Below are positions 11,479-29,140 of a stretch of DNA of 64,000 bases, piece by piece; positions within the stretch are counted from its first letter, which is position 1, and each line of letters starts with the position of its first letter. Under the pieces are notes generated by a model. It made no database searches. It had not been told where the DNA came from and saw nothing but the letters and a program-made list of their open reading frames with translations. The stretch is from a virus (lineage: Duplodnaviria > Heunggongvirae > Uroviricota > Caudoviricetes), in the IMG/VR virus record IMGVR_UViG_3300006899_000574. One strand, 5' to 3'. A program made the position numbers and the translations under genes.

Positions 11479-12933
11479 CTACTGCATGCGGAAGGCTCCC
11501 TGGATGGCGTTGATCATTGACCGCTGGCCATTTGCATACAGGAGACAACTGCTGTGAAGCCAAGAAGATGCGTGACCCTTTGTGTAGTCAAGATTTAATC
11601 TTGTTGTGGTGCCCACCACCCAGAGCGGTGACAGGATCTGTGGAGAGTGGAAGTGCCCGCAGATCGCCGGCCCAATGTTGCGCAGACTCTGCACGCCGCC
11701 ACGACTGCCGTTGGGGCCCTTGTCGCCGTGGCTTGCAAGCTGAATGCCGCAGACCTTGTAGTCCTGGTCGCGGCGCAACCACGTCGTCTTTTCGTCTTTG
11801 AAGCCCCGCTCCTTCAGGAACCACTCGATGGGATTGGAATGTCCGCTGAACATTGCTTCCAGCATGCGGTTACCGATGCGCAAGTTGTGGTCTTCCTTGA
11901 AGTGCTTGAGTGCCAGGATATGACGGTCCAGGAATTCGTTGTGGTTGGAGGCCACCATGAGGAACTCCGGTTTGGGAAACTTCCTTCTCCATAACTCCAG
12001 CGTGCTCTGCACGGCTTCGATCTCGGTCTCAATGCTTCTGAACTTCTCGGGCCTGCTGAGTCTCGCCACGACGTTGTGCTCCAGATGGTGGTTGGTAGAC
12101 AGCTGGTCAGCGAAGTCGTGAAACGCGATCCTGCGGGGCTTCACAAGCGCCGCGAGTTCTTGCCAGGCGAGGACCGCCATGGGGTCTTCACTGCCAACGT
12201 GGTAGTCGCCAATTACGAGAGCCTCCACTACAGCAGGCTTCCTCGTGTTTTCGACATAATAGGTTTCGAGATCATTGAAGCCACCGCTTTCATCCGCCTG
12301 GATCTGCCGGACGTGGAACAACACATTGTCCTCTACCTCCACGATGAGGCCGCCTACGACGTGGTCCTGCTCCGCCAGCATCCCCGCTCGTGTGCGGGCG
12401 TAGTTGTCGGCTACCGTGATGGCGCCTGTAGACAGCAGGAGATGCGGAGTGGCGAGATTGCTCACGGGCGTTGTGCGCATGTGCTGTTTGGGGTGCGCGA
12501 CGATCAGCGAGCGGTCTTTCTGACCCAGGCGGTCGAGTCCCAGGAGCGGCTGTTGTTGCTGTGGATACAGCATGAGATCCAGCGCCTTCAGGTTGGAGTT
12601 CAACACGTAGTCACTGACGAAGTGATTGGCGAATTGCTGAAGCTCCCGTGGATACATCTGGTTGGTCTTCGAAACCCCGCGCATCGGCAGGATAACGAGC
12701 TGTGCCTGTCTGTGCTTGCAGTAAGCCTGGGCTGTAGCAAAAAAGGCGTGATGCAGGGCCTGGCCGCCTACGGCCGATGCAAGGAGATAACGGCGGCGAG
12801 ATTTTCTCCGGCTGTCGTCTCGACTGACGTCAAACTCCTGACGACTGAAAGGCTGATCTTCTACTGGGATGTCTTCTGATTGAGGGGTAGGCTTCTTGTT
12901 GGAGATTGTCGATTTCGGCTTCTTCCCGCGCAT
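11479..12933 (-). CDS. calcineurin-like metallophosphoesterase (SbcD/Mre11-class fold, function unknown)
   Basis: VIGDYHVG, ASNHNEF and ICGHFHSP motifs. Confidence 0.55.
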   Translation of the reverse strand: MRGKKPKSTISNKKPTPQSEDIPVEDQPFSRQEFDVSRDDSRRKSRRRYLLASAVGGQALHHAFFATAQAYCKHRQAQLVILPMRGVSKTNQMYPRELQQFANHFVSDYVLNSNLKALDLMLYPQQQQPLLGLDRLGQKDRSLIVAHPKQHMRTTPVSNLATPHLLLSTGAITVADNYARTRAGMLAEQDHVVGGLIVEVEDNVLFHVRQIQADESGGFNDLETYYVENTRKPAVVEALVIGDYHVGSEDPMAVLAWQELAALVKPRRIAFHDFADQLSTNHHLEHNVVARLSRPEKFRSIETEIEAVQSTLELWRRKFPKPEFLMVASNHNEFLDRHILALKHFKEDHNLRIGNRMLEAMFSGHSNPIEWFLKERGFKDEKTTWLRRDQDYKVCGIQLASHGDKGPNGSRGGVQSLRNIGPAICGHFHSPQILSPLWVVGTTTRLNLDYTKGHASSWLHSSCLLYANGQRSMINAIQGAFRMQ

Positions 12934-14620: not shown

Positions 14621-16627
14621 CTATTGGATTTGCATCACTTTGAATGCCTGTCGTGCGGCATCTATCCGTTTGCGGAAATCGACGTCCGCAAAATCCGGCT
14701 TCTTGCCGCTGGCCTTATATGCCAGGCGCGTCTGTTGCTGTTCATAGCTCACCGATGGCATGTAGCCGACTTTGTGTATGCTGAAGGCGGCGTGTGCCAT
14801 GGCATCACTGACGTCCTTTGCGTGAACTCCGCATTTCGAATTCTCGAAGTCACCTCTGTAGTCGTTGACTCTCATGCCCTTGCTGTGATCAATCTTCTCC
14901 GGGCCCCTTTTGTTCTTTGCTCTCGTGCGGTAGAGGCTGTCGAGATTGTTCCTGACGAAAACATTGGGCCCCACTTTGAGTCTGCCGCTGAGCATTCTGG
15001 AGTAGAGCTGTGTATAGGGCTGGATGTCGATATCCACCGAAGACCTTACGGCATTGATGTCGTTCCTCACCAGATACTGGATGAGGTTGGCGCTTTGGTA
15101 CTGGTCAACACTGACCTGCTCGATGTGAACTCTGCCTTTGTCCCGGAGATCACGGATGAACATCTGGATGGCTTCGAGGTTGATGCCGTTGGGGCCCGGT
15201 GCCACCGCAAATGCGAAGTCGAAGATCGTCGTGGCGGTACCATCTTCCATTTGTTCCTCGTGAGCCATGGCGATGCCTGCGACGTCTCCTCGAACGCTGG
15301 TTGCCAGATCCACTCCGATGTAGCGCGGCGCTGACGGCGCGCGGATCAGCGACAGATCAACTCCGTTCCCTTTTGAAAAGAACAGGTGGCTGACGGCGTT
15401 CCAGATCAAATCCTCCGGGATGGACTTGCTGTCGGCCACAACTGAGGCTTCGACGTTGGGAAGCGTGGGGTCGAAGATCGACGCAATCAGACTGCGTTGT
15501 TGCAGGAACTTGCTCTCGCTGGTGGCGGGCTGGCCCGCGATGTCTTTGATGGACTTCAGCAAGTTGTCTTCAAAAGCCTGTTTGACATCAATTGGAGGGG
15601 ATACCACCAGACCGGGGGCGTAGTTGTGTTCCTCTCCGGGTTCCAGGATACGAGCGGGAGTCTCGCCATCCCCCACGCAGACATGGAAGACCTGGGAGTT
15701 GTCTTTGTGGTATGCGGGGAAAAACTTCTCACAGAGTTCCGGAGCATCCCACTGCTTGCGCCAGCGGAAGTATACCTCTGGCCGGTATTGCATCTTGCTG
15801 ATGATGTGCTGTTCGATCTGCGACTCCGCCAGGTTTGCCGACGTATCCAGCAGTGTGAACGCCAGGTAGTTGTTGCCAACAGTGCCTCGAATACGACTGA
15901 CGGTATCGGTGTAGATGCGGAAAATCTGCTCCTCGGTGGCCCCGGCTTTCTCGATAAAGAAGCCGATCTCTGAGATGAAGGCGCAGATGATGTTGGCGCC
16001 GATGATTGACAGCGCGTCGTCATTACCCGTCACGAGTTGCAGGCCAGATGCCAGCGTGATCTCCCCGACTCTCGCGGCCTCTGAATACACGATGATGTCG
16101 TCTCCAGCGGCTTCCTGCTCTTCTCGCACGTTGTCGCGGAAGTGTGTCTTCTGGAACCTCGGGCTCTGCTCTAGAATCTCGAACAGCGGCTGAATGTAGA
16201 GTTCATACACCTTCTCATACTTGAAGCTCATCAAGTAGATGGAAAGCGCGGAGGTTGAGATCAAATTGTAGGCCCCCGCCATGCTGGTAAGGTGGTGCAT
16301 GTAGACTATGACATACGCCATGAGCAGGACAGATCCCACGCTTTTTCCCATACGGACAGCGCCGTATAACGCCACCTGCGAATACTTTCCGCTGAGGATA
16401 TTACAGAAGTCCTCCTTGACGTGTGCAAAGAGTTTGTTGGCCACTCCCTCCGGAAGCCAGCCGTTGCGGGGGTCGAGGAACTCCTCCGGGCTGGGGGGCG
16501 GTTTGCGAAATGTGTGTCCCTGCAACTGGCGGAGCAACGCAGTGTTGCCGCCGAGGATCTCCTTCACTGCCTGCTGTTCGACGGCACTGAGCTTGTTGAA
16601 ATCAGCGGCAAGATTTTCTGGCAACAC
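14621..16627 (-). CDS. terL: terminase large subunit
   Basis: Walker A-like ATPase GAVRMGKS, C-terminal nuclease-like YIGVDLA..D; 668 aa, a gp17-like size. Confidence 0.85.
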   Translation of the reverse strand: MLPENLAADFNKLSAVEQQAVKEILGGNTALLRQLQGHTFRKPPPSPEEFLDPRNGWLPEGVANKLFAHVKEDFCNILSGKYSQVALYGAVRMGKSVGSVLLMAYVIVYMHHLTSMAGAYNLISTSALSIYLMSFKYEKVYELYIQPLFEILEQSPRFQKTHFRDNVREEQEAAGDDIIVYSEAARVGEITLASGLQLVTGNDDALSIIGANIICAFISEIGFFIEKAGATEEQIFRIYTDTVSRIRGTVGNNYLAFTLLDTSANLAESQIEQHIISKMQYRPEVYFRWRKQWDAPELCEKFFPAYHKDNSQVFHVCVGDGETPARILEPGEEHNYAPGLVVSPPIDVKQAFEDNLLKSIKDIAGQPATSESKFLQQRSLIASIFDPTLPNVEASVVADSKSIPEDLIWNAVSHLFFSKGNGVDLSLIRAPSAPRYIGVDLATSVRGDVAGIAMAHEEQMEDGTATTIFDFAFAVAPGPNGINLEAIQMFIRDLRDKGRVHIEQVSVDQYQSANLIQYLVRNDINAVRSSVDIDIQPYTQLYSRMLSGRLKVGPNVFVRNNLDSLYRTRAKNKRGPEKIDHSKGMRVNDYRGDFENSKCGVHAKDVSDAMAHAAFSIHKVGYMPSVSYEQQQTRLAYKASGKKPDFADVDFRKRIDAARQAFKVMQIQ

Positions 16628-16734
16628 CTGGTATTAGGGAATTTGTTTGACAGCTCGGTGTGCTGTCGTTGTAGTGCAAACCATGAATCAAGACGCAATC
16701 AGCTTCGGAACCTACCGGGGCTTCCACATCACGC

Positions 16735-17052
16735 ATGACAGAGACCCTCCGCGCATCCGTGGATCTGCACTACAAATCCCGGCTCACGGCCAGAGAGCAG
16801 AAAGTCTTTCGACTTACCCGCGAAGGAAAGCTCCAGGCTGGGAAGCTCACCAGCTACATCTCGCGAAAAAGCACATGGCGCGACGGACAGGACTTCACTT
16901 TTCGGGTTCTCTGGGGCACAAGTAAGGCCGCCTGTCAGGAAGGCTATCTTCAATCGTGCATCGACGAATTCTCCTGGAGATTTTCAAATCGAAAAAACGA
17001 GAATATTTTCCACGATTACATGAAGCGGACGGTGCTTGTTAAAACAGCGTAA
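16735..17052 (+). mobile_element. IS1595-family (ISXO2-like) transposase C-terminal tail remnant, copy 1
   Basis: YLQSCIDEFSWRFSNRKNENIFHDYMKRT matches the IS1595 Tnp C-terminus (Y.dEFxFRxNxR). Confidence 0.5.
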
Positions 17053-17056
17053 GAAA

Positions 17057-17611
17057 CTATCTAAATTCATCAATTCCGATGGGTATTGCTTTTGAAGAAT
17101 GGACACGAACTTGATTTATGCGACCGTAAGTATCTTCTACTTTTGGATGCACAGGCAAATCGCTTCGTCCGCCAAATCTGTTCCTATCATTCTTCCTGTA
17201 ATGCTCCCAATCTGGGCCATCGTCTGGTTGTAGATCGCTTTTTCTTGCTTTGAAAACAAGAAATACAGGATCACGCCCAGCGTGAGCTAAGTATGTTCCA
17301 AGACCATTCTTAGAACCAAGAAAAATAAACTGCCCAAGTGGATTCTTCCACACAGATTTTTCTGTTGCAACATCTCTATTCCAGCCAGAATCCAAAATTG
17401 CCTGAGCGTTCTCTCTGCTTGTCGCATGGTATAGAGCTACATAATTATCATCTGGAATGCTGGCTAATCGTTTCCAGTTTCCATTTGGATCGATTGCACC
17501 GTCAATGATGTAGTACCTACCAAAATCATCGTGTTTTTCAATTCGAGAAAAATTTGCTTCATACAGCGATCCGCCGCTCTCATAAAGCCTTTGCAATTCT
17601 ACCAGACGCAT
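17057..17611 (-). CDS. putative H-Y-E class ADP-ribosyltransferase fold protein (PARP/Tpt1-KptA/DarT-like); cargo 1
   Basis: VALYHATSRENAQAILDSGW resembles the HG(S/T)...IL..G NAD-binding motif of PARP/Tpt1/DarT; N-terminus MRLVELQRLYESGGSLYE is shared with the ORF at 18583-18957. Confidence 0.45.
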   Translation of the reverse strand: MRLVELQRLYESGGSLYEANFSRIEKHDDFGRYYIIDGAIDPNGNWKRLASIPDDNYVALYHATSRENAQAILDSGWNRDVATEKSVWKNPLGQFIFLGSKNGLGTYLAHAGRDPVFLVFKARKSDLQPDDGPDWEHYRKNDRNRFGGRSDLPVHPKVEDTYGRINQVRVHSSKAIPIGIDEFR

Positions 17612-17681
17612 ACCTGTATCTTTAGTGATCTGAGGCGATTCTAATGCGTCATAAGCCTGTGTACACTGAGGGATAATTCCG
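17612..17681 (-). promoter_or_regulatory. conserved upstream region of cargo gene 1, including a candidate sigma70-like promoter (TGTACA-16-TAGAAT) and the GGGATAATTCCG motif
   Basis: About 85% DNA identity to the region upstream of cargo gene 2. Confidence 0.3.
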
Positions 17682-17682
17682 T

Positions 17683-17707
17683 AAAAAAAAGGCGGAGGTT
17701 ATCCGCC
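17683..17707 (-). terminator. rho-independent terminator
   Basis: GGCGGA-ggtta-TCCGCC hairpin with an A8 run on the plus strand (T8 on the minus strand). Confidence 0.5.
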
Positions 17708-17733
17708 TCTTGAACAATGGACCGCTCTGCCTG

Positions 17734-18348
17734 TCAGCCGTAGATGACCTCCCCGAAAATCGAGAGTTGCAGTGCGACATCCGCCATAACGGCATCCCAG
17801 TCTCCGGCGTCGTAGAAGCTCGCGGGAGCATCGCCGCGCCACTTACCGTTCTGGATCATGAGGTGGTAGAGTTCGAGGCCCTTGGCGAAGCTCGCGTAGG
17901 TCACCGTCCAGAGCTTCAAGCCCGTCCGCTCATCGGTTTCCTCAACATGCTGGGCCACAGACGCTTTGTAGTCCATAAACTGATCTACTGTGGTCATGTC
18001 CTTTGTGGCGTCTGCGCAGGAGGAGCACAGGCACAGCGCAACGTCGGCCCAGGGCTGACCGTCGCTCCCCTTGCAATCCGAAAGCGGATGTGAGTGGTAG
18101 AGCGAGCCTCCGGGCTCATCAGCGGCGTCTTTACCGCAGGCATAACAGGTGAATTCCGCCCCCAGAGTCTCCTGATCGTGGAACTTAAATCTGCCTTCGC
18201 CTTCGTAGGAGAACTCTGTGCAGATCATGCAGAAACTGTATTCCGGGTAGTTCTCCATGACGTCTTTCGCGAGCTGGAGATAGGTCATGCCTCCCTGACG
18301 TTCTTCCGCAATGCGCTGATCAATTGTTTTTGTCGCTGTTGTTTCCAT
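17734..18348 (-). CDS. Cys-rich hypothetical protein (possible zinc-binding)
   Basis: 204 aa; CMICTE, CYACGK and CLCSSCAD clusters; bracketed by an inverted GGGATAATTCCG pair. Confidence 0.5.
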   Translation of the reverse strand: METTATKTIDQRIAEERQGGMTYLQLAKDVMENYPEYSFCMICTEFSYEGEGRFKFHDQETLGAEFTCYACGKDAADEPGGSLYHSHPLSDCKGSDGQPWADVALCLCSSCADATKDMTTVDQFMDYKASVAQHVEETDERTGLKLWTVTYASFAKGLELYHLMIQNGKWRGDAPASFYDAGDWDAVMADVALQLSIFGEVIYG

Positions 18349-18402
18349 GGAGACACCATATCCCCCGGCACAAAGTTGTCAACACAAAATGCAAAAAAAA
18401 AA

Positions 18403-18414
18403 CGGAATTATCCC
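18403..18414 (+). repeat. GGGATAATTCCG motif in inverted orientation (also at 17670-17681 and 19028-19039)
   Basis: Exact 12-mer three times within 1.4 kb. Confidence 0.6.
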
Positions 18415-18419
18415 GAAAC

Positions 18420-18572
18420 ATGAAGCGTGGGATTATCGGCTCGTATCACCACATCAGCCCGAAGTACCTGCAAGCATACATCGACGAATTTTCCTGGAGG
18501 TTCAGCAATCGGAAGAACGAGAACATCTTTCACGATTTTATGAAGCGAACTTTGCTGGCTACTGCGGCGTGA
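18420..18572 (+). mobile_element. IS1595-family transposase C-terminal tail remnant, copy 2 (50 aa)
   Basis: MKRGIIGSYHHISPKYLQAYIDEFSWRFSNRKNENIFHDFMKRT is the canonical IS1595 Tnp tail. Confidence 0.55.
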
Positions 18573-18582
18573 ACTGGTTTGG

Positions 18583-18957
18583 TCAGTTTACAGTATGATT
18601 TCCAGAGTTCAGTTCGTCCATTTCGGTACCTTCTTTGATCTCAAGTTTATGTTTTCGTGCTATTGTTTCAATAGCTTTTTTCTGCACCTTATTCAAGTGA
18701 TCCCATCTCATTCGCAACCACAGTTTTTTATCATTGGTAATGATGAAATCACGCCAGCCAATGGCTCTCGCATCTGCTCTTATTGAATCATGAAGATTAT
18801 CATTTTTATCTCGATTAAGAATTGTAAAAGCACCAAGACGATGATTCTCCCATTTTGACACTTCACCTTCTGGTGAAAGCCAGAACGATTCATAAGTAAA
18901 AGATTCATACAATGATCCGCCACTCGCATAAAGTCGTTGTAGTTCTACCAGTCTCAT
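18583..18957 (-). CDS. hypothetical protein; cargo 2 (N-terminus shared with the ART-like gene)
   Basis: MRLVELQRLYASGGSLYE then divergent sequence; 124 aa. Confidence 0.5.
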   Translation of the reverse strand: MRLVELQRLYASGGSLYESFTYESFWLSPEGEVSKWENHRLGAFTILNRDKNDNLHDSIRADARAIGWRDFIITNDKKLWLRMRWDHLNKVQKKAIETIARKHKLEIKEGTEMDELNSGNHTVN

Positions 18958-19039
18958 GTCCTTTGTATCTTTAGTAAACAGGCAGGCGATCCAGTTCGAT
19001 CAGACGACATAACTGGATGTACTCTGCGGGATAATTCCG
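18958..19039 (-). promoter_or_regulatory. conserved upstream region of cargo gene 2 with the GGGATAATTCCG motif
   Basis: Duplicate of 17612-17681. Confidence 0.3.
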
Positions 19040-19072
19040 AAAAAAAATCCCCCGGCTGTGACCCCGGGGGAT
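19040..19072 (-). terminator. rho-independent terminator downstream of the capsid gene
   Basis: TCCCCCGG-ctgtga-CCGGGGGA hairpin with an A8 run on the plus strand. Confidence 0.55.
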
Positions 19073-19097
19073 TGCTCAAGTAGGCTCTTCAGAGGGA

Positions 19098-20654
19098 TTA
19101 CTTGATGTTGTTGATTTGCAGGAGCTTGATGAAGCCCGGCTGAATCACGTTTTCGCCCTCAACATGCGCGAGGACAACTTCACGATACATCTGTGGGTAG
19201 TCCAGACCAGCACTGAGTTCTGTCAGTGTGCCGAACGCCAGAGACGGTTCGCCTTCTTCTTGCGCGTTTTTGTATACACAAATCGCTTCTCCAGAAGATG
19301 AAGTTCCCGCTACTGTTGTGGAGTGACTTGGAGTCACGTAGACGTCGATGTCCGCAAGTTTACCCGCGAGATAGGAAGCGCCAACCTTCTGTTGAGAAGA
19401 AGCGGATTTCCACTGGAGGTTCTTACGGAAGTAGTTCACGGCTTTCGGGTTGCCCACGATTTTCGTGATCTCACCACGTTGCAGTGCATCGAAGATATCG
19501 CCACCGATGTTATCGATGGTTGTCAGGATACGCTGAGCGTGGTTAAAGTCGTTGTCGTCGTTTCCACTTGCCGGATCTGCGTCGAACACATATGGAGTGC
19601 TCTGTCCCGCTACGCGTCTTGCGAGCTGGAAGGCTTTGAAGTCACGGCGTTTTGCCATCTCGTCGCCTGCGCGCTTGATGATCTGCTCGTCGAAGTCGCC
19701 GAGTCCAGTGGTCTCGAACGTCAGTTCGGACATCTTGGAGTAAGCGATGCGAATCGGATGCATCATGAGGTGGAATGGACGCTTGTAGACTTTCAGCTGA
19801 ATGTCGTTGTAAGACGAGTAGTTCGCGCTGTTTTCTGCATCCCATACTGCCTGCGCACGGATTTCAACACCAAGTGCTGGAGCCGTAGTCAGAGTCACAG
19901 AGAATGTTCCCGCTGTGTAGCTCACGGTTCCCGAAGACACAGTGGCTGTTGTGCCGCCGCTACCGTTCGGAGTTCCGATGAGGTTTCCCGCACCGTCGTC
20001 TGTGCCCACAAACGCATTACCTACAACGATTTGCACGCTGTGTGGCTTGATATTTGTAGGAGAGAATGTTCCTGTGAACGTTGTAGTCGCGCCGTCACCT
20101 GTGGAAGGTGTGCCGTTGATGGTCTGGAAAGCTCCGCCGTAATCCGCAGTTACTGCGCCGTAATCGTAGATACGATTGCCAGCTGTAGCGCCGCGAATAG
20201 ATGTTCCGTAGACTCCGTCTACATAGAAGAGCGCGTCGTTTACAGACGTAAGTGCCCATTCTGTGAAGACGTCAGCACGGTTGCTGTTCGCCACGCCGAT
20301 GCGGACGATGCGCAACACGTTCTCTGGAGACGTGCCGAAAGCCGAGGAGATTTGGGTTCCGGATTCCCGGATGTGAAGCATGTGTCTGCGCTGGTTTTCC
20401 AGGAGCAGTGCTGTGTTCCGTGCAATGGTAGGAGACTTGGCGTAAACGCTTTCCAGATATTGTCCTTCTGGTCTGCGGTTCCATTCTTCTACAAGACGGT
20501 CCAGAGCTACAATGCGTTTTTCGATGTACTGCTCGCGAGACGCGGCAGGACGATTTTCAGTCAGTGACTGCTGTGCAGGAAGTCGGCGTCCGTGCTTGTA
20601 GGCAACGGGTGCTGGGAGACGACCGGCAACAGGCGCATTTCTGAGTCGTTGCAT
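19098..20654 (-). CDS. putative major capsid protein
   Basis: 518 aa; the ORF is bracketed by strong terminators at 19040-19072 and 20792-20826 (the upstream one separates it from the scaffold-like gene); Gly/Thr-rich insertion domain; lies downstream of a scaffold-like gene. Confidence 0.5.
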   Translation of the reverse strand: MQRLRNAPVAGRLPAPVAYKHGRRLPAQQSLTENRPAASREQYIEKRIVALDRLVEEWNRRPEGQYLESVYAKSPTIARNTALLLENQRRHMLHIRESGTQISSAFGTSPENVLRIVRIGVANSNRADVFTEWALTSVNDALFYVDGVYGTSIRGATAGNRIYDYGAVTADYGGAFQTINGTPSTGDGATTTFTGTFSPTNIKPHSVQIVVGNAFVGTDDGAGNLIGTPNGSGGTTATVSSGTVSYTAGTFSVTLTTAPALGVEIRAQAVWDAENSANYSSYNDIQLKVYKRPFHLMMHPIRIAYSKMSELTFETTGLGDFDEQIIKRAGDEMAKRRDFKAFQLARRVAGQSTPYVFDADPASGNDDNDFNHAQRILTTIDNIGGDIFDALQRGEITKIVGNPKAVNYFRKNLQWKSASSQQKVGASYLAGKLADIDVYVTPSHSTTVAGTSSSGEAICVYKNAQEEGEPSLAFGTLTELSAGLDYPQMYREVVLAHVEGENVIQPGFIKLLQINNIK

Positions 20655-20791: not shown

Positions 20792-20826
20792 CAAAAAAAA
20801 AGCCCGGGGCAACCCGGGCTTTTCGT
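20792..20826. terminator. bidirectional rho-independent terminator
   Basis: A9-GCCCGGGG-caa-CCCCGGGC-TTTT. Confidence 0.55.
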
Positions 20827-20836
20827 CTGCCGACAT

Positions 20837-22699
20837 TTACAGTCGGTCTCTGAGCCAGGATGGTCGATTCGCCGCCCGGCTGGACTCCGTGAAGCTGGTT
20901 CCACTGTCTTCGCTGGCGCGAATCACGGGGTCTTCACCATTCCTTGTCATGGCTTCCACTACGCGCACGGCTTCGAACAACGTCTTGCTGTTCAGCACGG
21001 CATCGCGATGGCGCTGGAGTGCGGGGTATTCTGCGGCTTTCTGCTCGTAGAAGCTCCGGATCTCGTTGCGCACCACGGACTCCTTGATTCCCTCAGCAGG
21101 CGCTTTGCGAGAAGCAGAGTTTGCGCGCTCACCCATTGTGTAGCCCCGAGAACTTGCCTGACGGCGCATGGCGGGACTTGCGGTCTCCTGTCCCTTGCCT
21201 TCGGAATTTTCCTGCGGGAACCTGGGGTTAACAGCACGCGGAGCCCCGATGACTTCCGCATACGGATCGTCTTCCAGGCCGGCTTCGCGCAGTCTGTTGC
21301 GAAGGATAGCAATGCTCTCCTCTGCGACTGCGAGGTCTTCCGTGAGGTTGGTCACGCTGGCCACGAGCTTCAACACATCGCCTTCCATAACCATGCGGTC
21401 TTTGAGGGATTTCTTGATGTCGCCGTCGCGAGCCTCAAGTTGTTTCACCAGGAATTCGTTGTCGGCCACGAGTTCGCGGTTTTCGCCTTCGTAGACCTTG
21501 TTGTCTTTGGAGATTTTGTTGATTTCCTTCTCGTAAATCTGAAGATCAGCGTCTTTGATTTTTTCGTTGAGCTTGTATTTGGCTTCATTGGCCTTGAAGG
21601 TCTCGATGGACTCCGCCATGTCGTCAACTACCTTGAGCTTGTCCAGAGTCTCTGGAGTTCCGCCCAGGCGTTCGATTACCGCCACCATCTGCTTGTTGGC
21701 CTTGCGGGCTTCCACCAGCATCTGCTCGGCAAGAGCGAGTTTTTTTGCCGTGCCCTGGAGCGCTACCTGAGCGTCCTGACCCTTGAGAGCGGCTTCGCTG
21801 ATTGCGGCTTCCAGTTGCTCGCGGGCTTCTGCGATCTTCTGGCGTTCAGCCGGCATGCTTTCGACTACGACCGCAAAGCCTTTGAGGTCTTCGAAACGCT
21901 CTGTGAGTTCTTGCAGATCGCCGGACTTCAGAGCTTTGTTTGCGAGCTTCACGCGCTCGGATGTCTGGTACTTTGCATTGCCTTCAAGCAGTTTTACTTG
22001 ATCCATATTATTGCTGTTCCTCGCTTCTGATTTAGAAGTACTTCTGTCATTAGTATTTTGATTTTCCCGAAATCCCGTGTTTTCACCGAGATTTGCGATG
22101 GTTGCAAATACTCCCTGACTGGGCTGAAACACGCAGTCCGTGCGCTCATAGATGAAGGTCTCGGGATCAACAACTCCCTCAAGGATGAAGCCGTTGGCGT
22201 CGTAGTAGTTCTCCTTGATCTGGCCGAATCCCACTGTTGACAGCCCCACGCCTTTGGCGCCGGCTTGCAGGGTTTCGAGGATGAGCTTGCCGATGGGGCC
22301 CACGAGATACCAGTCCACGTATCCACATTCCTCTCCCAGCCTGGCGTTGTGGAAGACGCCGCAGATGCGCTCCATACTGCCGTCGCCGCTGTGCGGGTGG
22401 TAGTTGGTGTTCTCCAGTGGATGGTCGCAGAACGACAGACTGCCTTCGATGGTCTCCAGCACGCGTTGCCATAGCTCTCTGAGATACGTGCGGCCGTTGC
22501 GGTTGCGTGTGAACCTCGTGAACGGCACGTTGCGTACGATTGCGAGTGCCTGGTATTTGCCCTGCGTGCCTTCAGTCAGGACTCCGGGCTCACAGCGTTC
22601 AATGGTTACTCCGGTGTCGCCAAGGCTCACCTGAGATGATTCTACGAGCACGCGTAAACCGAGTTTAGCCGCTCTGGACTCCAGATATGTGGTGGTCAT
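20837..22699 (-). CDS. putative prohead scaffolding protein with long coiled coil (N-terminal globular domain, possibly a protease)
   Basis: About 300 aa of heptad-rich E/K/A/L sequence in the centre; position just upstream of the MCP. Confidence 0.4.
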   Translation of the reverse strand: MTTTYLESRAAKLGLRVLVESSQVSLGDTGVTIERCEPGVLTEGTQGKYQALAIVRNVPFTRFTRNRNGRTYLRELWQRVLETIEGSLSFCDHPLENTNYHPHSGDGSMERICGVFHNARLGEECGYVDWYLVGPIGKLILETLQAGAKGVGLSTVGFGQIKENYYDANGFILEGVVDPETFIYERTDCVFQPSQGVFATIANLGENTGFRENQNTNDRSTSKSEARNSNNMDQVKLLEGNAKYQTSERVKLANKALKSGDLQELTERFEDLKGFAVVVESMPAERQKIAEAREQLEAAISEAALKGQDAQVALQGTAKKLALAEQMLVEARKANKQMVAVIERLGGTPETLDKLKVVDDMAESIETFKANEAKYKLNEKIKDADLQIYEKEINKISKDNKVYEGENRELVADNEFLVKQLEARDGDIKKSLKDRMVMEGDVLKLVASVTNLTEDLAVAEESIAILRNRLREAGLEDDPYAEVIGAPRAVNPRFPQENSEGKGQETASPAMRRQASSRGYTMGERANSASRKAPAEGIKESVVRNEIRSFYEQKAAEYPALQRHRDAVLNSKTLFEAVRVVEAMTRNGEDPVIRASEDSGTSFTESSRAANRPSWLRDRL

Positions 22700-22729: not shown

Positions 22730-23113
22730 TCAGGCCTGAAGCGTGCAGGGAGTCGTCATCAGAGATGAGAAGCTCAAGGCATGTGCGGTGACGTTTCGGA
22801 GGCCGCGCAGTGCTTGTTGTTGCCGCAGGCGGCCCGAGGGGTTCATGGAGTGCAACACCACAACAGCGGGGCACAACAGTTCGTGCGCCTCCATCCACAA
22901 CGTGACTTCGTAACCGGTGTTCTCCACCCTGGTCACCATGACTTCACCACCGAGATCGTGATCGAGAAACGCGATGTCGAAACTCTGGGACGTCAGTGCC
23001 TGTATGGCTTCAGCCGCTGTGTGAACAAAGACAACGTCGTGTCCGGGCGTCAGCCATCTGCTGAAAGCCCGGTGCCGGTTGTCATCATCGTCAAGAAAAA
23101 GGATGCGCATCAA
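22730..23113 (-). CDS. stand-alone CheY-like receiver (REC) domain protein
   Basis: ILFLDDDD acidic pocket, phospho-acceptor FLDHDL, VVLHSMNP; 127 aa. Confidence 0.55.
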   Translation of the reverse strand: MMRILFLDDDDNRHRAFSRWLTPGHDVVFVHTAAEAIQALTSQSFDIAFLDHDLGGEVMVTRVENTGYEVTLWMEAHELLCPAVVVLHSMNPSGRLRQQQALRGLRNVTAHALSFSSLMTTPCTLQA

Positions 23114-29111: not shown

Positions 29112-29140
29112 AAAAAAAATGCCCGCTATGTCTAGCGGGC
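29112..29140 (-). terminator. terminator hairpin (first of about four hairpins in the 29097-29277 spacer)
   Basis: A8 run then GCCCGCTATGTCTAGCGGGC. Confidence 0.4.

Follow-up and report, generated by a model that had tools for sequence, protein, structure and literature searches.

How does a tailed phage come to carry, between its terminase and capsid genes, two small genes that begin alike and have unrelated bodies? The question is raised by positions 16628–19097 of the 64,000-nucleotide (nt) stretch of DNA that was analysed here, to which we refer as the window (IMG/VR virus record IMGVR_UViG_3300006899_000574, Caudoviricetes). An earlier note on this DNA, made from its letters, had seen there two duplicated cassettes, each with a transposase tail and a convergent "cargo" gene, and had proposed a modular accessory locus, perhaps for anti-defence, toxicity or host takeover, that it did not recognise as a described system. 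In our reading, the locus probably consists of two independent and old insertions of related transporter insertion sequences (ISs) of the IS1595 family in the phage.

Organisation of the two cassettes

The cassettes share their orientation and architecture, lie about 1.35–1.5 kb apart, and contain all the features that the earlier note had ascribed to them. In both, a remnant of a transposase gene (the stub, on the plus strand) is followed by a convergent passenger gene (the cargo, on the minus strand) and by a right terminal inverted repeat (IRR), which is the layout of a transporter IS. Cassette 2 retains both repeats and extends from 18403 to 19039 (637 bp), bounded by a perfect 13-bp inverted repeat, the left copy of which (IRL2, CGGAATTATCCC(G), 18403–18415) is complementary at 13 of 13 positions to the right one (IRR2, (C)GGGATAATTCCG, 19027–19039). 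Stub 2 (18421–18572, plus strand) begins 6 nt past IRL2, comprises the last 50 codons of an IS1595 transposase, and lies inside a plus-strand open reading frame (ORF) at 18324–18572. It is followed by the gene of cargo 2 (18583–18957, minus strand; 124 amino acids (aa)), composed of a leader of 18 codons (MRLVELQRLYASGGSLYE, 18904–18957) and a body at 18583–18903 (residues 19–124), with the 5′ untranslated region (UTR; 18958–19026, minus strand) located within the right end of the IS.

Cassette 1 has the right repeat only (IRR1, GGGATAATTCCG(T), 17670–17682, complementary at 13 of 13 positions to 18402–18414). Its stub (YLQSCIDEFSWRFSNRKNENIFHDYMKRT..., 16945–17052, plus strand) is likewise a C-terminal remnant of an IS1595-family transposase and matches stub 2 at 75% of DNA and 78% of protein positions, and the gene of cargo 1 (17057–17611, minus strand; 184 aa) comprises a leader that aligns with leader 2 (MRLVELQRLYESGGSLYE, 18 codons, 17558–17611) and a body at 17057–17557 (residues 19–184). 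The left end of this cassette is missing from the 317-bp spacer that separates it from the terminase gene terL (16628–16944, GC content 52–54%, as in native DNA), where neither an IRL-like motif (up to 4 mismatches) nor an A-run, nor any Pfam or PHROG family, was found. The plus-strand ORF that runs into stub 1 (16735–17052) is chimeric, its first ~70 codons (16735–16944) being of native GC; by eye, this part shows a LuxR/sigma-r4-like pattern ('LTAREQKVFRLTREGKL...YISRKST'), and it has no Pfam match.

The cassettes, of 38–43% GC as compared to 54% in the phage, are the two lowest-GC islands of the 64 kb (0.38–0.41), and their plus-strand stubs sit in a genome that is almost wholly transcribed from the minus strand. 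Both traits point to a foreign origin.

Upstream of the passengers, both cassettes present a constant 5′ module that corresponds to the right end of the IS, that is, the terminal repeat, a UTR/promoter region of 58–70 nt and the first 18 passenger codons. The UTR of cargo 1 (17612–17669, minus strand) aligns with that of cassette 2 and holds a putative promoter, the sigma70-like TGTACA-16-TAGAAT, which scores 9/12 as a consensus match and is present in cassette 1 only; promoter-like matches were, on the whole, not above those of shuffled sequences (4 found, 2.8 expected). The combination of such a module with unrelated bodies, pointed out in the earlier note, is borne out, since both cargos begin with MRLVELQRLY[E/A]SGGSLYE (17 of 18 residues the same) and nothing significant is found by BLASTP between them beyond this leader. 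The DNA identity, given there as about 85%, has to be lowered: the leaders agree at 81% of positions, the blocks around the motif at 79%, and the aligned 5′ regions as a whole at about 75%. A hairpin followed by a motif does precede each promoter, as described, but the hairpins are not homologous and a third, inverted copy of the motif had been missed. This motif, the 12-mer GGGATAATTCCG, occurs three times in the 64 kb, always at this locus (0 of 100 shuffles reached three), and its inverted copy lies at 18403–18414, right before stub 2. It is the terminal repeat of an IS and not a promoter element.

Derivation from the IS1595 family

Stub 2 matches the Pfam family DDE_Tnp_IS1595 (E 1e-9; 39 bits, with a cut-off of 27; profile positions 121–152 of 153) and has tblastn matches to annotated IS1595 transposases. 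A complete member of the family with the same layout was found on plasmid AP017966.1 of Ca. Megaera polyxenophila (1665 bp; hereafter the Megaera element). As stub 2 aligns with residues 259–304 of its 304-aa transposase, cassette 2 can be regarded as an internal-deletion derivative, from which ~258 codons have been lost. No other transposase parts were detected in 16400–19200 by tblastn with two full transposases, and, instead of the full DDE transposase that characterises the family, only the last 32–50 residues survive. The homology of the stubs to IS1595 transposases is certain, and the elements are, judging by these remnants, non-autonomous derivatives.

Other traits of the Megaera element can be compared with those of the cassettes. 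The tip of its 38-nt inverted repeats, CGCAATCATCCC, is identical to CGGAATTATCCC at 10 of 12 positions. Its transposase is complete (304 aa), as opposed to the last 35–50 codons that are left in the cassettes, and its passenger is convergent with the transposase, as the passengers of both cassettes are with the stubs. The distance from the ATG of the passenger to the end of the IS is 74 nt, and 70 and 82 nt in the cassettes. Finally, its target duplication, TACTTTTT, is a clean 8 bp.

The IS1595 family duplicates 8 bp of its target (ISfinder). Cassette 2 is directly flanked by an A10 run (18393–18402), the left copy of the presumed duplication, and by an A8 run (19040–19047), the right one, an arrangement that is compatible with an 8-bp duplication, the length of which is unmeasurable in a homopolymer. 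Direct runs next to an inverted motif correspond to a probable target duplication and not to the repeat; the alternative that the A-run forms part of the inverted repeat was rejected, as it is direct on both sides. Only five runs of at least eight A are present on this strand of the 64 kb, three of which abut an IS repeat. The other two (20793–20801 and 29112–29119) are unoccupied candidate terminator T-tracts of minus-strand genes, and would be potential targets if the element prefers oligo-T.

Relatives with defined ends are scarce in the collections searched. Seven distant IS1595 transposases were obtained by tblastn on plasmids, and clean ends from the Megaera one only; the IS1595 loci of Treponema, Methylocystis and Bacteroides gave no clear repeats in a quick scan. 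The search of viral contigs with the stub did not return a parent IS, and the sole match in a scan of genome contigs was a Chloroflexota transposase fragment of 46% identity. No cognate full-length transposase was found in the window or in any collection searched. A Chloroflexota metagenome-assembled genome (DAOUIX010000027.1, 1396–1614) carries an isolated IS1595 C-terminal fragment of 72 aa (...EWRFSNRKNE...), the rest of the gene being absent; isolated stubs of these transposases evidently persist elsewhere too.

Probable insertion sites and the gene between the cassettes

Each cassette abuts a hairpin with a U-tract. The first one (17683–17712, minus strand; hairpin + U8, fold of -16.2 kcal/mol, z = -2.5) is the terminator of a 204-aa gene, its U/A8 run being the putative insertion target of cassette 1. 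The second (19040–19073, minus strand; hairpin + U8, -21 kcal/mol) is that of the capsid gene, and contains the A8 run mentioned above. The two hairpins cannot be aligned with each other and lie outside the repeated unit. Their sequence, good folding and location indicate that they are native phage terminators that served as insertion targets, and not parts of the cassettes, as the earlier note had assumed. An Rfam scan returned nothing real.

The 204-aa, Cys-rich gene that lies between both insertions (17734–18348, minus strand) had also been counted among the cargos, a view that was rejected given its native GC of 57–60%. It belongs to phrog_2355 (function unknown, 1e-7), has a promoter-like TTGACA-16-TATGGT of its own (18382–18355, 10/12), and gave no tblastn match in phage records. 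Its product, with an N-terminal helix-turn-helix-like 'GGMTYLQLAKDV', is encoded just upstream of terL, at a possible location for a small terminase.

Age of the cassettes and selection on the leader

Synonymous and nonsynonymous differences between the cassettes (pS and pN, respectively) were obtained by Nei-Gojobori counts and compared with the neutral expectation by binomial tests. The leaders have 10 nucleotide differences, 8 of which are synonymous (pS 0.62, pN 0.049, p = 3e-4; dN/dS about 0.04), while, in the stubs, the differences are overwhelmingly synonymous and pS is saturated (pS 0.83, pN 0.116, p = 1e-6). These counts indicate that the leader is translated, as the earlier note had supposed, and that it is under strong purifying selection as a peptide. 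A constraint at the DNA level, such as a transposase binding site, was rejected as the cause of its conservation, since the differences are synonymous. As for the stubs, they diverged while they were still part of working transposases.

Silent sites are close to saturation in the leader and have reached it in the stub, so the cassettes do not derive from a recent duplication. They are old, distant members of one element family, and the word "duplicated" has to give way to two old and separately diverged relatives. The leader is not shared by any other protein of the window, and two degenerate back-translated patterns of it gave 0 matches in viral and metagenome collections that lack the window's own contig, which is weak evidence.

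The ADP-ribosyltransferase-like domain of cargo 1

Residues 19–184 of cargo 1 have 26 detectable relatives among 1.84 billion representatives, several of which lie within proteins of 1,500–5,000 aa. The leader is found in none of the 26 homologues, whose matches begin at residues 19–98. All four carriers of the domain that were scanned contain ART-PolyVal, and some of them also NUDIX, GNAT or sigma-70. Such carriers fall in the class of polyvalent proteins that occur in phages and conjugative elements and for which packaging and injection have been predicted (PMC5512222).

The suggestion that cargo 1 resembles an ADP-ribosyltransferase (ART) finds support in structure prediction. With an alignment of 20 sequences, AlphaFold2 modelled cargo 1 with a pLDDT (confidence score) of 91, and the named structural neighbours of the model are nearly all ADP-ribosyltransferase folds. 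Foldseek searches of PDB and viral libraries lead to the same conclusion, with an 'ART-PolyVal-like' protein and a Tpt1, both from phages, among the matches. The model thus assigns an ART fold to cargo 1. Evidence at the sequence level is consistent, if weak. Cargo 1 itself has no Pfam match, the PF18760 model included, but, among 20 members of its family, PARP matches three (best 0.0018) and DarT one (0.3). Additionally, the cargo-1 profile finds Tpt1 in PDB at 0.014, on the HxT motif, and hhalign gives a probability of 30% against four ART-PolyVal segments. PADLOC, PHROGs and PDB sequence searches with the cargos returned nothing. The invariant residues in cargo 1 are H62, A63, T64, Y107, D130, D134, W135 and Q167, and enzymatic activity is putative. 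Apparent repeats of residues 20–64 in two proteins (P0016 and P0020) were dismissed as summed 4–5-bit matches.

Cargo 2, proposed exchange of gene bodies and population variants

Cargo 2 has no detectable family or fold, and no Pfam, PHROG or PADLOC match. A homologue, P0003, is 79% identical and is encoded in an unrelated contig of 42% GC, without IS parts, in an operon where it overlaps the stop of the upstream gene and adjoins a tRNA-like sequence (by eye). At the N-terminus it has MKLVDLRQICESNKSLYE, recognisable as a diverged leader, in which LVE reads LVD. At the nucleotide level, cargo 2 and P0003 are 72% identical within the leader, 98% over the 54 nt that follow and 87.5% across the body (Fisher p = 0.0065), and the identity is uneven elsewhere too, with one 54-nt block at 74%. 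The break in identity at the leader/body boundary is, consequently, suggestive.

These comparisons suggest that the leader originally belonged to the cargo-2 family, small phage-like genes that natively carry a diverged version of it, and that cargo 1 would be an in-frame chimera of such a leader with an ART domain. The boundary between leader and body seems to behave as a recombination breakpoint.

Some variation is also found at the population level, as the earlier note had expected for this interval. Contigs of two other samples of the Joint Genome Institute (JGI) are identical over the parts covered. One of the two, a near-identical variant (L006, JGI 3300045330, 1067–1110), diverges at the equivalent of window position 18299, codon 17 of the 204-aa gene, where it reads METTATKTIDQRIAEER-stop. 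After this premature stop, unrelated sequence ends in GGGATAAC, resembling the tip of the IS repeat, and may reflect an insertion, a rearrangement or the end of the assembly. Another contig (L007, Logan SRR8797213) is 99.6% identical through cargo 2, but retains only 78 nt of stub 2, up to the equivalent of window position 18494. Beyond this junction (922–966 of the contig) come 18 diverged nt and then a third UTR-plus-leader, 27 nt of which are identical to the UTR and leader of cassette 1 (window 17622–17596), where the contig ends. On this thin evidence, drawn from short contigs, the interval between terL and the capsid gene is not fixed, and recombination acts on it besides transposition.

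Origin of the locus

We consider it likely that the cassettes are what is left of two separate and old insertions of related IS1595-family transporter ISs. The target of each element would have been the run of T in an intrinsic terminator, that of the capsid gene in one case and that of the 204-aa gene in the other. The 8-bp target duplication would regenerate the T-tract, so that the upstream terminator stays intact, and the passenger would end up in the direction of the late genes of the phage, expressed, presumably late, from a promoter in the right end of the IS. Each transposase gene, being dispensable, would later have lost most of its length, cassette 1 keeping the last ~35 codons and the right repeat, and cassette 2 the last 50 codons and both repeats. 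The remnants would then be non-autonomous "mobile insertion cassettes", in which the selected content is the passenger gene. The passengers may have been kept for some benefit to the phage, plausibly the modification of a host target by ADP-ribosylation, and the body would have been exchanged in-frame behind the conserved leader.

Several observations weigh against this origin. No full-length parent with the repeat, stub or leader of the cassettes appeared in any collection, and membership in the family relies on remnants and one distant comparator, to which the stub is 43% identical. The repeats are just 12–13 bp long, cassette 1 has no left repeat, the target duplication of cassette 2 is a homopolymer of unmeasurable length, and the promoters are consensus matches only. 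Catalytic triads of the ART superfamily read H-Y-E or R-S-E, and in the third motif of cargo 1 the invariant residue is Gln167 (INQVR) and not Glu, so that its catalytic competence is no more than putative. The junction in L007 was formed without an IS repeat, so that some of the rearrangement is recombinational and not transpositional. Finally, an IS model alone leaves unexplained why a peptide of 18 residues was kept while the body was replaced.

The last of these points is addressed by a complementary proposal, according to which the leader is a capsid-targeting propeptide similar to the capsid-targeting sequence (CTS) of T4. The cargos would be expressed late, brought into the prohead core by the leader, trimmed after Glu18 by the gp21-like protease of the phage and injected along with the DNA, cargo 1 being an Alt-like injected ADP-ribosyltransferase and the IS cassette a vehicle for swapping injected effectors. 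This is possible, although we hold it to be rather unlikely. It fits a leader that is strongly constrained although the bodies are unrelated, and a boundary between constant and variable parts that falls exactly after L-Y-E18. The leader (MRLVE-LQRLYE-SGGSLYE) contains three [LI]xE motifs, which occur genome-wide at 0.012 per position (p = 8e-4), and gp21-type proteases cleave C-terminal to Glu, T4 Alt being processed at ITE-6 and LTE-619 (PMC5694885). The internal proteins of T4 are diverse, counter defence and have only the CTS in common (PMC3012670), and in the paralogous ejection proteins gp53 and gp54 of SPN3US the first 15 residues are identical and include motifs of this type (PMC5694885). 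A 620-aa protein encoded upstream of the capsid gene (20837–22699, minus strand) probably combines a prohead protease (gp21/S77-like N-terminal domain) with a coiled-coil scaffold. It matches the 'head maturation protease' of Pseudomonas phage QdP_Psa3 (BLASTP 5e-5), the aligned region of which matches Pfam Peptidase_S77, the family of T4 gp21, at 5.6e-12; the top PDB match of a profile of the two sequences is T4 gp21 (5jbl), colinear and with a weak E of 0.15, and the 620-aa protein has no direct Pfam or PHROG match. Additionally, the family of the cargo-1 domain occurs in polyvalent proteins predicted to be packaged (PMC5512222), and the cargo genes are located in the head module, on the late-gene strand. 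On the other hand, packaging and cleavage rest on motif logic and on a transitive protease assignment, which is weak for the window protein itself. The leader does not recur in the window, cargo 2 has LYA for the middle LYE and P0003 has LVD for LVE, and LxE motifs arise easily in amphipathic helices rich in Leu and Glu. A phage-specific leader is also hard to reconcile with a synonymously saturated transposon backbone, unless the element family is phage-resident. In the extended form of the proposal, a phage-resident lineage of IS1595 transporters would act as a plug-in for injected effectors, its right end giving the promoter and an LYE-cleaved propeptide, and bodies such as polyvalent ART domains would be swapped in-frame by T-tract transposition or by recombination at the leader; this is conceivable, but we think it unlikely.

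Two further explanations do without insertion as the main event. The first, which is the model of the earlier note in its pure form, is a modular accessory locus, intrinsic to the phage and shuffled by recombination at conserved promoter/terminator repeats, in the manner of the PeSL (promoter/stem-loop) cassettes in hyperplastic regions of T4-like phages, with the IS stubs as incidental. The constant 5′ module with different bodies speaks for it. Shuffling mediated by PeSL is documented (PMC2839356, PMC4122927), and both the sharp break in identity at codon 18 between cargo 2 and P0003 and the direct junction of stub 2 with another UTR-plus-leader in L007, without an IS repeat, are in line with it. 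In this locus, however, the stem-loops are not conserved between the cassettes, and part of a transposase gene, maintained by selection at the protein level, belongs to the repeated unit. Promoter/terminator cassettes do not predict a motif that is inverted at the far end of cassette 2 and flanked by direct A-runs; motif and leader occur nowhere else in the 64 kb, and the cassettes are of foreign GC, all of which makes such a locus improbable. A recent tandem duplication of one cassette, followed by the replacement of one gene body, would account for the common architecture and orientation and for the distance of about 1.35–1.5 kb, and it is very hard to sustain given the synonymous divergence of leader (0.62, near saturation) and stub (0.83, saturated). 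Moreover, the copies are separated by a gene of native GC with its own promoter and terminator, each copy abuts the T-tract of its own terminator, and cassette 2 comes with two repeats and an apparent flanking duplication of its own. Two independent IS insertions thus remain the reading that we prefer.

The phage and the genes that flank the locus

A 73,074-bp JGI metagenome contig is a circular permutation of the window, with 100% identity, its end falling inside terL at 15093. The window has a GC of 54% and nearly all its long ORFs are on the minus strand. The host replicon is a novel tailed phage of roughly 73 kb, virulent-looking. Contigs of three JGI samples contain identical sequence, and a Logan run also has cassette 2, so the arrangement is not an assembly artefact.

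On the left, the native flank is the large terminase gene terL (14621–16627, minus strand, GC 54–59%), whose product has ~25% identity by tblastn to annotated large terminases over 85% of the protein. On the right, it is the native major capsid protein gene (19098–20654, minus strand, 518 aa), whose product belongs to phrog_1014 and matches a 'major head protein' at 28% identity (E 1e-8). No DNA match to the window was found among 50,697 phage records, nor were relatives of the terL and capsid proteins in IMG/VR. The tblastn relatives are only 25–28% identical and, as such, too distant for a comparison of the terL–capsid interval, and exact-protein look-ups gave mostly the window's own contig.

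Two other genes of the window may be mentioned. The product of the one at 11479–12933 (minus strand) is strongly homologous to the 'DNA transfer protein' of T5 A1 type and includes a metallophosphoesterase region (phrog_1745, 1e-94), the phage being otherwise unrelated to T5 at the DNA level. At 22730–23113 (minus strand), between a 731-aa portal-like gene and the protease/scaffold gene, a protein of 126–127 aa has a receiver-like cREC_REC domain (PF20274).

Comparison with known systems

To our knowledge, ISs are uncommon in the genomes of virulent phages, and there are few clear cases of a phage structural module that has gained an accessory gene through an IS and kept it. The locus may therefore illustrate a concrete route of gene gain, in which insertion occurs in the T-tract of a terminator, the duplication repairs the terminator, the passenger brings its own 5′ region, and the transposase then decays. 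It also presents an ART-fold domain of the polyvalent-protein class as a free-standing gene. If the leader were indeed a portable capsid-targeting signal, it would tie transposons to the way in which phages diversify their injected effectors; otherwise, the locus would amount to an instructive but ordinary piece of IS debris.

Among the systems to which the locus may be compared, the internal proteins and Alt of T4 (PMC3012670, PMC5694885) resemble the cargos in that a short conserved N-terminal peptide is carried by unrelated small proteins, one of them an ART. As in the T4 CTS, the leader ends in hydrophobic-x-Glu, the phage has a probable gp21-type protease, and the locus varies between close relatives. 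By contrast, the leader has no sequence similarity to the CTS, the cargo genes ride on IS remnants, and packaging and cleavage are hypothetical here. With PeSL (PMC2839356, PMC4122927), the locus has in common the presence of small accessory genes after a terminator hairpin and a conserved promoter-proximal sequence, together with evidence of modular shuffling. PeSL is characterised by a conserved stem-loop and early promoter between accessory ORFs, whereas the hairpins of the cassettes cannot be aligned, being non-homologous native terminators, the repeat is confined to the locus, and the conserved unit takes in part of the coding sequence as well as IS repeats and what is left of a transposase. 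As regards ART-PolyVal (PF18760; PMC5512222), the domain of cargo 1 occurs in the same giant proteins, and the ART fold and the pattern of HxT, aromatic and 'NQ[IV][KR]' motifs are common to both, but cargo 1 (184 aa) stands on its own, has a foreign leader and is undetected by the PF18760 model.

The closest likeness is to mobile elements. Mobile insertion cassettes (MICs), such as MIC231 of the Bacillus cereus group (a concept used in PMC3129680 and PMC6199540), consist of IS-type repeats that flank a passenger without a transposase, and cassette 2 (637 bp) fits this description exactly. It differs in being derived from IS1595, instead of having IS231 or Tn3-type ends, and in that it still has a transposase stub; its mobilisation in trans is hypothetical. 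Transporter ISs (tIS) of the IS1595 family were described by Siguier, Gagnevin and Chandler in 2009, as cited in PMC11891212. With one of them, the Megaera element, the cassettes have in common a homologous transposase C-terminus, 10 of 12 positions of the repeat tip, a convergent passenger and T/A-rich flanks that would fit an 8-bp duplication. In contrast to this element, the cassettes are non-autonomous, with a transposase cut to 35–50 codons, and one of them is without its left end; they are located in a phage structural module, and their phage-type passengers share a leader to which the N-terminus of the Megaera passenger is unrelated. What the earlier note had not recognised as a described system, consequently, has the architecture of IS1595 transporter ISs and MICs (repeats, probable target duplication, transposase remnant and convergent passenger), and is a locus of a known kind, made of the remnants of such elements, in an unusual place and with an unusual cargo.

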